Under the pieces are notes generated by a model. That model ran no database searches and was not told the DNA's origin. It saw only the letters and a program-made list of their open reading frames with translations. The translations under genes and the position numbers were made by a program. A stretch of DNA of 64,000 nucleotides from Arenicellales bacterium (GTDB lineage: Bacteria; Pseudomonadota; Gammaproteobacteria; Arenicellales; Poriferihabitantaceae), in assembly GCA_963422685.1 (NCBI GenBank), contig OY730442.1, positions 2,317,839 to 2,381,838 of the forward strand, read 5' to 3'. Position 1 is the stretch's first letter. Every line of letters starts with the position of its first letter. Positions 55,501 to 64,000 of the stretch are shown here, one piece after another.

Positions 55501-58500
55501 GTGTTAATGTTGTAATAGTTTCAATCCACGCGCCCCTGAAGGGCGCGACGTCGTAGCCGGGTGAACATCAAATTCTTCCGACATGGTTTCAATCCACGCG
55601 CCCCTGAAGGGCGCGACCCCTAACCTCCGGCGTGTCGTTGATTGACAGGATGTTTCAATCCACGCGCCCCTGAAGGGCGCGACGCCGCATCTGCAACTTT
55701 CCTGATAGCAACAGTATCGTTTCAATCCACGCGCCCCTGAAGGGCGCGACCATACATATCAAGCTCCTTGCCAACATCTTTAGTCAGTTTCAATCCACGC
55801 GCCCCTGAAGGGCGCGACGAAATAACACCGTGATGGGGAACATAATATTCGGGTTTCAATCCACGCGCCCCTGAAGGGCGCGACCCCTAATTATCAATCT
55901 AAATGAGCATAAAATCATGTTTCAATCCACGCGCCCCTGAAGGGCGCGACATAAGTTATATATCTTTTTCAATCCATTATGAGAGTTTCAATCCACGCGC
56001 CCCTGAAGGGCGCGACGTTGGTCGACCTTGTCTGTTTTTGGACTTCTGCTGTTTCAATCCACGCGCCCCTGAAGGGCGCGACCGGCGGACGGCAGTACAC
56101 CCTTACGCCACAGGATGTTGTGTTTCAATCCACGCGCCCCTGAAGGGCGCGACTCATCAAGTGGTAGGTACAACCCGCTAAGATTCGAGTTTCAATCCAC
56201 GCGCCCCTGAAGGGCGCGACGCAAGTAAGTTGTTTCGTTTGGTGTTGAATATCATGTTTCAATCCACGCGCCCCTGAAGGGCGCGACGTTAATTGCTTGA
56301 CAGTGCAAGCATGTTTACGTTGTTTCAATCCACGCGCCCCTGAAGGGCGCGACAAAGTAAAAATAATCGAAGTGGTGATAAAATCATGTTTCAATCCACG
56401 CGCCCCTGAAGGGCGCGACGATTTTATGCGACGATGAGCGACGATTGAACATCGTTTCAATCCACGCGCCCCTGAAGGGCGCGACTGATGATAAGTGTTC
56501 TGATCGTGACTTTCTCGAAGTTTCAATCCACGCGCCCCTGAAGGGCGCGACCTGTTTCGACTGGGAAAACTTTATTGTATTAAGCGTTTCAATCCACGCG
56601 CCCCTGAAGGGCGCGACCGGCAGATTCCTATCATCAGCCGCTAAGACAGTCTGTTTCAATCCACGCGCCCCTGAAGGGCGCGACACGAAGACAATGTTCC
56701 GACTCACATGACATACCAGTTTCAATCCACGCGCCCCTGAAGGGCGCGACACGGTAAAAAAAGGCGAAGCAGAAGCTTTCAGCGGTTTCAATCCACGCGC
56801 CCCTGAAGGGCGCGACTCCTTACATTCGAATCGAATAAGGTTGTTGTCCAGTTTCAATCCACGCGCCCCTGAAGGGCGCGACGCAGGCTCTGCTGTGGTG
56901 GACGCATCAATGCGCTGGTTTCAATCCACGCGCCCCTGAAGGGCGCGACCATTAAAAGCCGTGCTGTGCGTATCAGAATAATCGTTTCAATCCACGCGCC
57001 CCTGAAGGGCGCGACAACATTTTTATGCTTAGTCGTATACGCATACCAGTGTTTCAATCCACGCGCCCCTGAAGGGCGCGACCGGCCAAGGTCGGGGAGC
57101 CCGTAGCCGTAGCGGATGTTTCAATCCACGCGCCCCTGAAGGGCGCGACATCTTGTTGGTGCTTGTCAACTCTTTTAATATTACGTTTCAATCCACGCGC
57201 CCCTGAAGGGCGCGACGTCTATCATCTATAGAGTCGCACGCAAGATTGCTGTTTCAATCCACGCGCCCCTGAAGGGCGCGACACAAGGTTCGGGAACCGC
57301 TAACATACTGGTTTTGGTTTCAATCCACGCGCCCCTGAAGGGCGCGACTTAACGCATGTTTGACTAATATGGAGCGAGTGTAAGTTTCAATCCACGCGCC
57401 CCTGAAGGGCGCGACAACCCGAAAAGGGTTATGAAAGCAACGACAGTCAGTTTCAATCCACGCGCCCCTGAAGGGCGCGACGTGTGTTAGGTTTCCGCCT
57501 GTCTGTATTTTTGAAGTTTCAATCCACGCGCCCCTGAAGGGCGCGACTAGTGCATGTTTTACAATAGCGGCGCGGGTAGAAGTTTCAATCCACGCGCCCC
57601 TGAAGGGCGCGACCTGCGGTAAGCGGGTCCATCAATATTGACCGTGAACGTTTCAATCCACGCGCCCCTGAAGGGCGCGACTTTTTTTGCCCGCGCGTCT
57701 GATGCGACGCGCGGGCTGTTTCAATCCACGCGCCCCTGAAGGGCGCGACCGAGAAACGCGGAGGTTACAAACAAACGAAAGCACGCGTTTCAATCCACGC
57801 GCCCCTGAAGGGCGCGACAACCAACTACGTGGATAACGCCCACAAGCGCGTTGTTTCAATCCACGCGCCCCTGAAGGGCGCGACTGAAAACCCGGTCGGG
57901 TCTGCAACCGCATAATAAGTTTCAATCCACGCGCCCCTGAAGGGCGCGACTTAGTTATGCGTCGTCGACATGACGACGCACAGCGTTTCAATCCACGCGC
58001 CCCTGAAGGGCGCGACTTCCAGCGCTCGTGCAAGCGCTGGAGGTGTGCAATGTTTCAATCCACGCGCCCCTGAAGGGCGCGACATCCGCGCGTCTCGCGA
58101 TCAGAGACGCGCAGGCAAGTTTCAATCCACGCGCCCCTGAAGGGCGCGACTCCAGCGCTCGTGCAAGCGCTGGAGGTGTGCAATGTTTCAATCCACGCGC
58201 CCCTGAAGGGCGCGACCGACCCATCTGCACAATCTGAATGCAGCGAAGCAGTTTCAATCCACGCGCCCCTGAAGGGCGCGACATCTTCAATTCGCACTGA
58301 AGCGAAGCTGTTTGTTAGTTTCAATCCACGCGCCCCTGAAGGGCGCGACTGAAAGTACTTCGAAGATACCTAAGAGAGCCAGGTGTTTCAATCCACGCGC
58401 CCCTGAAGGGCGCGACTGCACGAGCGCTGGAGGTGTACAATGAATGCGTCGGTTTCAATCCACGCGCCCCTGAAGGGCGCGACCTCAGCGATCGTCGCAC

Positions 58501-61500: not shown

Positions 61501-64000
61501 CGGACGAGCCCAGTAATCATGTTTCAATCCACGCGCCCCTGAAGGGCGCGACAAATGTACAAAACTAACTACGTGGATAACGCACACGTTTCAATCCACG
61601 CGCCCCTGAAGGGCGCGACGACAGATGCCCGACTGAAATGACATACACAAAAATTGTTTCAATCCACGCGCCCCTGAAGGGCGCGACTGACATACACAAA
61701 AATCAAAGTAATCGAATTGGAGTTTCAATCCACGCGCCCCTGAAGGGCGCGACAACCGTAAAAAAGGGCGATATCGAAGCTTTCAGCGGTTTCAATCCAC
61801 GCGCCCCTGAAGGGCGCGACCCATCTTGAGTTTGCAATTTCGCAAACTCGCAATTGTTTCAATCCACGCGCCCCTGAAGGGCGCGACACCATAAAAAAGG
61901 GAGATATTGAAGCTTTCAGCGGTTTCAATCCACGCGCCCCTGAAGGGCGCGACGCCGCGTGCTAATTGCACAGCGGCAGTAATGACGGTTTCAATCCACG
62001 CGCCCCTGAAGGGCGCGACTTTCATCGTCCTGACAAAAAGCTTCGCTTCAGTACGTTTCAATCCACGCGCCCCTGAAGGGCGCGACCGATAAAATGTGAC
62101 GATGGAAGACGTATAAACATCGTTTCAATCCACGCGCCCCTGAAGGGCGCGACCATTTTTAAATCCTCGTTTAGTTGCGAGCTTGCGGTTTCAATCCACG
62201 CGCCCCTGAAGGGCGCGACACTGAAATCACGTACACCAAAATCAAAGTAATTGGTTTCAATCCACGCGCCCCTGAAGGGCGCGACTATGGTATTTTGTTT
62301 GGCCAGGGCGATGAGGTTTGTTTCAATCCACGCGCCCCTGAAGGGCGCGACGCAGAAAAAACAAATGGCGCTGAGCGAGTCTTAATGTTTCAATCCACGC
62401 GCCCCTGAAGGGCGCGACTATCCCCGTCTTACGCATCACCACCAAACTCACTGTTTCAATCCACGCGCCCCTGAAGGGCGCGACGCCCCGAACGTGTGCT
62501 GCGCGCCGGACTGGTCGGCGTTTCAATCCACGCGCCCCTGAAGGGCGCGACAAAATCAAACTCAGCGCCAGCATCCCTTAGATACTGTTTCAATCCACGC
62601 GCCCCTGAAGGGCGCGACAACCACCAGGTCATCACTGTTGACCCGGGCCGCATGTTTCAATCCACGCGCCCCTGAAGGGCGCGACTGATGTACCCATCGT
62701 GACCCGTAGCACAGCCAGTGTTTCAATCCACGCGCCCCTGAAGGGCGCGACGTTCGAAGTTAGCGGCATCGCCCAGCAGTAGGTCGTTGTTTCAATCCAC
62801 GCGCCCCTGAAGGGCGCGACACGCAGCGAGACAGTCACGCCTCGCTGCGACAGGGGTTTCAATCCACGCGCCCCTGAAGGGCGCGACATACCCCTAAACC
62901 TAAACCAGCACCTCAATACCAAGTTTCAATCCACGCGCCCCTGAAGGGCGCGACCTGAAGGAGCCGCTTACCCGCTGTCCCTGCATATCGTTTCAATCCA
63001 CGCGCCCCTGAAGGGCGCGACTATGGTATTTTGTTTGGCCAGGGCGATGAGGTTTGTTTCAATCCACGCGCCCCTGAAGGGCGCGACGACGAATTGGTTG
63101 ATGGTTGCGGTGACGAGTTTTGTTTCAATCCACGCGCCCCTGAAGGGCGCGACAACTTTTAGCGACCTGTGCGGTGCTGGTGGTCTTGTTTCAATCCACG
63201 CGCCCCTGAAGGGCGCGACGGCGTTGCAGGCTCTCTTCCAGCAAAGTACACTGGTTTCAATCCACGCGCCCCTGAAGGGCGCGACGGGTATAGCGCGTAT
63301 AGCGGAAGTTTGTGGCGAGGTTTCAATCCACGCGCCCCTGAAGGGCGCGACGTGCGGCCTTGCCGAGAATTTGATAGCTGGTATGTTTCAATCCACGCGC
63401 CCCTGAAGGGCGCGACTCCATAAGAATGTTTCAATCCACGCGCCGGAGCGCGTTTCAATCCACGCGCCCCTGAAGGGCGCGACCACCCTCACCGGACCCA
63501 ACACCATCGCCCCAAACCGTTTCAATCCACGCGCCCCTGAAGGGCGCGACCTCGGGAGAAGGAGAGGATGTGCGGAATATGGCTGTTTCAATCCACGCGC
63601 CCCTGAAGGGCGCGACACGGCGACGAACATCAGCCCGCCGGAATTATGACGTTTCAATCCACGCGCCCCTGAAGGGCGCGACGGCGCGCAGCACACGTTC
63701 ACCGCCCGCGACCTAGCGGTTTCAATCCACGCGCCCCTGAAGGGCGCGACGACGTGCAGACAGTAATTGTCGACGGCGCCGACGCGTTTCAATCCACGCG
63801 CCCCTGAAGGGCGCGACATCTATGGCGAGGATTTATTCAACACCGTAATCAAGTTTCAATCCACGCGCCCCTGAAGGGCGCGACAGCCTCAAACTTCCCG
63901 GATGTAGGCCGAAAAATGCGTTTCAATCCACGCGCCCCTGAAGGGCGCGACGACGTGCAGACAGTAATTGTCGACGGCGCCGACGCGTTTCAATCCACGC
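52526..64000 (-). CRISPR. Large type I-C-like CRISPR array, about 172 spacers in the window, truncated at the right edge
   Basis: 32-bp repeat GTTTCAATCCACGCGCCCCTGAAGGGCGCGAC (reverse complement GTCGCGCCCTTCAGGGGCGCGTGGATTGAAAC, with a 7-bp hairpin and an ATTGAAAC end); spacers mostly 33-37 bp; one variant repeat at 52724-52755. Transcription is inferred on the minus strand, with the leader and cas genes beyond 64000. Confidence 0.98.

Follow-up and report, generated by a model that had tools for sequence, protein, structure and literature searches.

The 64,000-nt stretch analysed here (the window) comes from the single-contig, 2.90-Mb genome (52% G+C) of an Arenicellales bacterium (contig OY730442.1, positions 2,317,839 to 2,381,838). 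At 52526..64000 on the minus strand it carries a type I-C CRISPR array, in which two spacers hold a large part of the array's own repeat. The window comprises 172 repeats and 171 spacers, nearly all of them 34-36 nt long, and the whole array, counted genome-wide, has 201 repeats and 200 spacers, with its right end 1.9 kb past the window end. Spacers are numbered S1-S200 from the leader, the rightmost being the newest. The repeat reads GTTTCAATCCACGCGCCCCTGAAGGGCGCGAC on the plus strand and GTCGCGCCCTTCAGGGGCGCGTGGATTGAAAC (32 nt) in the sense of the CRISPR RNA (crRNA). No further copy of it was found elsewhere in the host genome, and the sole degenerate repeat of the array, at 52725, is located at the far, trailer end. 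Directly after the array, beyond the window end, an AT-rich leader of about 180 bp is followed on the minus strand by cas2, cas1, cas4, cas7, cas8c (Csd1), cas5d and cas3, all with strong Pfam matches. As the leader and this complete cas operon adjoin the right end of the array, the host system is of type I-C and transcribed from the minus strand. The array shows all features of this type, i.e., the 32-nt repeat with a 2-nt overhang, a stem of 7-8 bp and an 11-nt handle, the cas set and a TTC protospacer adjacent motif (PAM). The latter is evident from a GAA/TTC flank at four protospacers, namely that of the mimic-derived spacer described below and those of S34, S47 and S95.

Spacer S77 (34 nt, 60755..60788, minus strand, 77th from the leader) reads GCGCTCCGGCGCGTGGATTGAAAC-ATTTTTATGG in crRNA sense and consists of the hairpin and handle of a foreign repeat mimic followed by 10 nt of downstream sequence. 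S37 (35 nt, 63417..63451, minus strand, 37th from the leader) reads GCGCTCCGGCGCGTGGATTGAAAC-ATTCTTATGGA and stems from the same protospacer with the same PAM-proximal end, albeit in another variant and with a PAM-distal end that is 1 nt longer. Each of the two is identical over 17 nt to the 3' part of the repeat, and their GCGC together with the PAM yields the TCGCGC of the repeat's 5' part. In coordinates, sequence and repeat content, both spacers are exactly as described in an earlier annotation made from the letters of this DNA (the sequence-only reading). Considering all 200 spacers and either strand, these 17 nt are the longest exact match to the repeat; two other spacers reach 10 and 9 nt, and the remaining 196 do not exceed 7 nt. 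By chance, about one match of 9-10 nt would be expected over the array, and none of 17 nt. Mis-assembly, for which the sequence-only reading had proposed a check at both sites, is excluded, because independent Logan unitigs reproduce the two spacers with their flanking repeats. Repeat-S77-repeat is spanned in the public run X1 (47 nt, depth 318, 0 mismatches), and repeat-S37-repeat in X1 (64 nt, depth 239) and in X2, which belongs to a different study (73 nt, depth 35, 0 mismatches). In a 76-nt unitig of X1 (over window positions 60748-60795), the I-C repeat after an S77-like spacer is not that of the host but GTTTCAACCCCCGCGCCCCTGACGGGCGCGAC; with such a spacer sitting beside another I-C repeat, a second host lineage holding a near-identical S77-type memory is suggested.

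Outside arrays, the protospacer of S77 and S37 occurs in contigs of three public runs, which belong to two studies, and its unique flanks are the same throughout: a 477-nt contig in X1 (depth 34.8), a 284-nt contig in X2 (depth 5.7) and a 151-nt contig in X4 (depth 2.6). In crRNA sense, the source locus reads TCTGCTTGCATCACATTAGCAGGCAGGT-TTC-GCGCTCCGGCGCGTGGATTGAAAC-ATTTTTATGG-ATATGTACCCAAGCGGAAAGCCCCCACAATC, with the unit embedded as ...GGCAGGT-TTC-GCGCTCCGGCGCGTGGATTGAAAC-ATTTTTATGGATATG..., and a context of about 95 nt could be read (TCTGCTTGCATCACATTAGCAGGCAGGTTTCGCGCTCCGGCGCGTGGATTGAAACATTTTTATGGATATGTACCCAAGCGGAAAGCCCCCACAAT). The source protospacer deviates from S77 at one position and from S37 at two, and its 5' flank is TTC, the I-C PAM. 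Hence, the 27-nt, TTC-starting repeat variant that had been predicted from the spacers, TTCGCGCTCCGGCGCGTGGATTGAAAC, does exist outside the array. The 13-mer GCGCTCCGGCGCG, the unit and its flanks are all missing from the host genome outside the array, so that the source is not a degenerate chromosomal repeat of the host. Thus, none of the three outcomes named beforehand as fatal to the prediction was encountered, neither mis-assembly nor a degenerate host repeat nor the lack of an external protospacer with a TTN flank. The source element is present at roughly a tenth of the host abundance, as the X1 contig ending in the array repeat, taken as host chromosome, has a depth of about 366 compared to 34.8, and this despite the near-matching spacers of the host.

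No second repeat lies within -28/+41 nt of the unit, and the 477-nt X1 contig is continuous, in contrast to the host array, which is broken up into unitigs of at most 90 nt. Both findings make a normal array around the unit unlikely. A solitary repeat or mini-array had been envisaged as the source in the sequence-only reading, which also proposed to look for a promoter upstream; no sigma-70-like promoter was seen in the 28 nt before the unit. The sequence following the unit varies among variants, at least 3-4 different ones being found. No match came from viral-contig scans with the unit plus the sequence after it, with the hairpin upstream or with two other recurrent spacers, and the source element is absent from IMG/VR, JGI metagenomes, species genomes, GenBank phages and PLSDB. 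Likewise, the 95-nt source matched nothing among GenBank phages or PLSDB plasmids, and among the phages, a BLAST search with a 7.5-kb part of the array (56500-64000) gave no genuine protospacer match either; elements of this host are not represented in those phage and plasmid collections. Four single matches to the 20-nt core in a scan of the genome collection were rejected, being at chance level, without the 5' stem arm and not part of arrays.

Two further spacers belong to the opposite strand of this source. S6 (sixth from the leader, about 1.5 kb past the window end; L001 1487-1522, corresponding to G000:C1:2383325-2383360) has the sequence TTGAAACATTTTAATGGATATGTACCCGCTTCAAAC, which can be read as TTGAAAC-ATTTTAATGG-ATATGTACCCGCTTCAAAC and overlaps the handle. 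An origin from the mimic locus is strongly indicated by a 27-nt overlap of S6 with the external contig at one mismatch, which ties the opposite-strand acquisitions to this locus. S133 (57016..57050, minus strand, 133rd from the leader) is probably derived from it as well. Its PAM-distal end consists of the AAC of the handle plus ATTTTTATG, 12 nt in common with the reverse complement of S77, and then diverges into another downstream sequence (CTTAGTCG...). The assignment is based on this 12-nt identity and the analogy with S6, no contig matching the S133 protospacer having been found in runs X1-X4. The claim of the sequence-only reading that a third spacer comes from the other strand is supported by the same 12 nt, with S6 as the bridge to the locus. 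In X1, a 459-nt contig (depth 5.8; over L001 1480-1511) shows an S6-like sequence preceded by other sequence with its own GTGGATTGAAAC; before the S6-like sequence, it contains TTTTTCAAAATGTGTGGATTGAAACAAAAT, a second copy of the handle without the GC stem, and after it yet another downstream sequence, GATGCAGCAAGGGCGG.... This contig could be an escape rearrangement or otherwise rearranged variant, or a paralogous site.

S6, S37, S77 and S133 constitute one of the three largest among 25 families of related spacers, which altogether cover 62 of the 200 spacers of the array. Their spread along the array (positions 133, 77, 37 and 6 of 200) and their origin from four separate variants indicate that the conflict has been a long one and that the element is diversifying. 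Moreover, the position of S6, only six spacers from the leader, shows that the conflict with the mimic-bearing element is recent.

The unit (TTCGCGC-TCC-GGCGCGTGGATTGAAAC, 27 nt) differs from the host repeat (GTCGCGC-CCTTCAGG-GGCGCGTGGATTGAAAC, 32 nt) in base 1, the loop and the top of the stem, and the 5 nt by which it is shorter are all missing from loop and stem top. Positions 2-7 and the last 17 nt, i.e., 23 of the 27 nt, are identical. When folded in isolation, it has a 5-bp stem closed by a UCCG tetraloop, with an overhang of 2 nt and a tail of 11 nt; in the real repeat, overhang and tail have the same lengths, the stem is 7-8 bp long and the loop is short. Hairpin and identical handle are in register with the host repeat, and the canonical I-C geometry of overhang, stem and handle is kept. 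According to published work (PMC8524198), Cas5c/Cas5d recognises the base of the stem, the cut site and, downstream of it, the UGG/handle, but can do without the loop and the 5' overhang. The mimic retains stem base, cut site and the full 11-nt handle UGGAUUGAAAC, with a 5-bp stem that is outside the variant set of that study. Upstream, the unit is preceded by an 8-bp hairpin. An ATG is located 6 nt past the handle, and its frame is open in all four variants (starting with MDMYPSGK.., MDMYPLQ.., MDMYDAARA.. and MLSRIRIP.., respectively). Two substitutions between variants are found just 3' of the handle and none inside the 27-nt unit; with the substitutions falling outside it, a constraint on the unit at the nucleotide level is suggested.

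These features point with moderate probability to a repeat mimic of the kind of solitary repeat units (SRUs) or RNA anti-CRISPRs (Racrs), carried by a mobile element and made a protospacer by its TTC start, which the host captured repeatedly. On this reading, the sponge-associated host would be accompanied by a foreign element, most probably of phage or other mobile origin, that carries a single shortened imitation of the I-C repeat, 5'-UUCGCGC-UCC-GGCGCGUGGAUUGAAAC-3', behind a hairpin and 6 nt before an ATG. The unit would probably work as an SRU or Racr by soaking up Cas5c and Cas7, as could be concluded from the kept Cas5c determinants and the limitation of changes to loop, stem top and base 1. 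With its first three bases being the I-C PAM, hairpin and handle are a legitimate protospacer. From two sequence variants of it, Cas1-Cas2-Cas4 of the host took up the mimic twice, as S77 and S37 show. Two further spacers that reach into the handle come, as strongly indicated for S6 and probable for S133, from the other strand immediately downstream. The source is presumably a phage or plasmid, and the unit may be solitary also beyond -28/+41 nt and might act as an RNA anti-CRISPR. Typical of Racrs, it resembles the repeat of a defined subtype in both sequence and structure (23 of 27 nt, hairpin, handle), and the matching subtype is present in the host with the complete I-C operon beside the array.

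Several observations weigh against this explanation. Within the approximately 95 nt of source sequence, neither a phage gene nor a promoter nor an acr gene is found beside the unit, and the minimum-energy fold of this context does not include the unit's own hairpin. Of the four variants, only that of S133 interrupts the frame that passes through the unit (..RFRAPARGLKHFYGYV..), and the unit may therefore have a coding location. A partner repeat upstream of -28, i.e., a two-unit mini-array, may exist. Finally, repeated sampling is common in the array, as seen from its families of related spacers, and as this is a general habit, the four mimic spacers do not require any special selection. The unusual record of counter-counter-defence proposed in the sequence-only reading may represent just ordinary hot-spot acquisition at a TTC site. 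The repeated sampling would be due either to selection favouring a mimic that cannot mutate freely or to such an acquisition hot spot.

Solitary I-C repeat units and RNA anti-CRISPRs are already known, the latter since 2023 (PMC10651486), and RacrIC1 has been validated experimentally as a type I-C inhibitor (Camara-Wilpert et al., Nature 2023, PMC10651486). The present unit resembles RacrIC1 and SRUs in being apparently a single I-C-like repeat copy outside any array that matches the host subtype and keeps hairpin and handle, and in having related units in IMG/VR phages beside anti-defence genes. In contrast to these, it has a length of only 27 nt, its 5-bp stem carries a tetraloop, its first three bases are TTC rather than GTC, which makes it a PAM-flanked protospacer itself, and it abuts an ATG. 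Moreover, its existence was deduced from host spacers, and it would rank as a candidate inhibitor only. In viral contigs of IMG/VR, the same handle occurs in about 68 solitary I-C-like units, 58 starting with G and 10 with T (TTC); they are 30-33 nt long and show compensatory changes in the stem. The annotated carriers of the T-type (L002, L003, L009-L011, L013) are real phages with genes for major head, tail, small terminase and RecT proteins. In L013, two identical solitary I-C units (6789-6819 and 8663-8693) bracket a phage DNA methyltransferase gene, the second lying immediately upstream of the ribosome binding site (RBS) of the next gene. In L009, one solitary unit adjoins a Lar-like anti-restriction gene. 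Some of the IMG/VR units are adjacent to a major head gene or RecT. Many of the IMG/VR units are located 10-30 nt upstream of an RBS and ATG, like the unit captured by the host. The T-type units (for example L002/L014, L003, L009/L012/L015, L010, L011, L013) share with it the TTCGCGC...GCGCGTGGATTGAAAC frame and the solitary position, which is often closely followed by a gene start or closely preceded by a late gene, but have a length of 31-32 nt. The short 27-nt build, however, recurs, as a phage mini-array (L070) opens with a 27-nt unit having a 5-bp stem and a tetraloop. None of the 80-odd IMG/VR loci with I-C units is matched by other spacers of the host studied here, and their carriers therefore belong to phages of other hosts.

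Alternatively, the source might be a stand-alone or terminal degenerate repeat of another CRISPR-cas locus, such as a CreA/CreR-type regulator or an array trailer, in another strain, species or plasmid. According to Shmakov et al. (bioRxiv 10.1101/2023.03.03.530964), stand-alone repeat-like units are widespread in cas loci. Moreover, X1 contains another I-C lineage, the repeat of which differs (..GGGGGTTGAAAC), and the sequence upstream of the unit was read to -28. Still, this origin is unlikely. At least 3-4 different sequences follow the unit, which fits better to the accessory locus of a mobile element, and among 185,579 species genomes, the 20-nt core does not occur in any array or cas locus. 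In addition, the source is at about 10% of the host's depth, and its 477-nt contig stayed intact, unlike arrays at k=31.

A lower probability still is assigned to the unit being a viral Cracr or part of a two-unit mini-array, in which the adjacent 'spacer' guides host Cascade to a host promoter or a rival element. Viral I-C Cracr arrays have been reported (10.1101/2024.10.29.618823), and Cracrs and mini-arrays (Medvedeva et al. 2019, PMC6858448) have in common with the present unit the mimicry of repeats by mobile elements, the first unit of L070 being of identical build. Furthermore, the 459-nt X1 contig has its second handle copy 12 nt upstream of the S6-matching TTGAAAC. However, two repeat-like units around a pseudo-spacer, as in a mini-array, were not found, since no second repeat exists at +34 to +41, where normal spacing would place it, with the upstream side read to -28. 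Nor does the unit show the PAM-proximal match to a host promoter expected of such guides. The downstream 'spacer' has no host match of TTC plus at least 10 nt, save one for the S133 variant; the matches of TTC plus 9-10 nt fall on a single host site at 1.69 Mb, which is remote from the cas locus and does not exceed chance level. Nothing in the host matches the 28 nt upstream of the unit.

With several spacers from one small region, from both strands and all consistent with a TTC PAM, the acquisitions resemble ordinary repeated or primed type I acquisition, as do the 24 other families of the array. The difference is that the protospacer here copies the processing signal of the system itself, and the crRNA precursors consequently contain an internal Cas5c site. 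As each of S77 and S37 includes this site in full, their precursors may be cut into non-functional pieces. This leads to the speculation, with only a slight chance of being correct, that the TTC start serves as bait, so that the captured spacer would bring a complete Cas5c site and the array would encode decoy copies. In that case, cleavage of the pre-crRNA within S77 and S37 would leave a 13-nt guide that is dead and a crRNA whose spacer measures 10 nt, and TTC-type solitary repeats would cause a heritable, self-inflicted weakening of immunity or would at least render themselves untargetable. In a milder, reverse version, the mimic could not mutate without losing function and would thus be a durable Achilles heel exploited by hosts again and again.

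Hardly probable is the use of the repeat mimic as attachment site for integration of an element into CRISPR repeats. A Streptococcus pyogenes prophage is known to integrate at CRISPR repeats (Varble et al. 2021, as cited in PMC10651486), the 17 bp perfectly identical to 201 chromosomal repeats would provide a recombination core, and two of the IMG/VR relatives are classed as proviruses. On the other hand, all 201 repeats are regularly spaced without any insertion, a tyrosine integrase is encoded in none of nine IMG/VR records with TTC-starting solitary I-C units (two of them 100% complete), and the contigs listed contain no array-element junction. The only point in favour of an artefact of assembly, or of the array's own repeat having been partly duplicated or internally rearranged, would be the a priori oddity of repeat sequence within a spacer. 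This explanation is refuted by the unitigs reproducing both spacers in two studies, by the same 35 nt occurring with unique non-array flanks in three runs, and by S77 and S37 differing in a substitution and 1 nt of length, as in separate acquisitions.

In the Racr paper, the Cracr preprint and two surveys of CRISPR components on mobile genetic elements, no report of spacer acquisition by a host from an RNA anti-CRISPR was found. New are the short TTC-initiated member of the mimics considered here, its discovery via the host's own spacers and its repeated capture. The array provides a dated series of at least 3-4 acquisitions from diverging variants, with the target still present in the same samples. 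It thereby raises the questions of whether a sequence-constrained repeat mimic can be targeted durably and whether a spacer bearing the system's own processing signal results in a working crRNA or in self-sabotage. Beyond this case, it shows that a repeat mimic can be detected through spacers even when the element carrying it has never been assembled.

Two other spacers were considered as repeat-derived and rejected. The 10-nt repeat match of S149 is at chance level. S95 (59550..59583, minus strand; AATCCACGC...) represents an ordinary GC-rich coding site reading GCGTGGATTGAAA; its exact protospacer is found in GC-rich contigs of 2.2 and 4.0 kb inside an open reading frame (..RSRLRGLKSRVAEV..) with a GAA flank, and its likeness to the repeat is a chance-level resemblance. 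A single 3984-nt contig of run X3 contains both the S95 protospacer and, at a distance of 1.5 kb, that of the spacer at 62619-62653, the latter being flanked by TTT instead of TTC. Spacers forming perfect hairpins are in excess in the array, with 16 having stems of at least 7 bp compared to about 1.3 expected from shuffled sequences, mainly at window positions 57682-59118; the hairpin of the mimic may be part of this bias in acquisition.

Directly upstream of the I-C operon and on the same strand, past the window end (L001 10058-14978), a divergent second effector module is encoded, comprising a Csd1-like gene (weak match), a Cas7 gene (PF05107) and a second Cas3-like helicase. The same genome also bears a type I-F array with 210 repeats (GTTCACTGCCGCACAGGCAGCTTAGAAA; G000:C1:2553622-2566169) and two intergenic, orphan single I-F repeats at 2150245 and 2526010, one of which adjoins helicase fragments that may be a decayed cas3.

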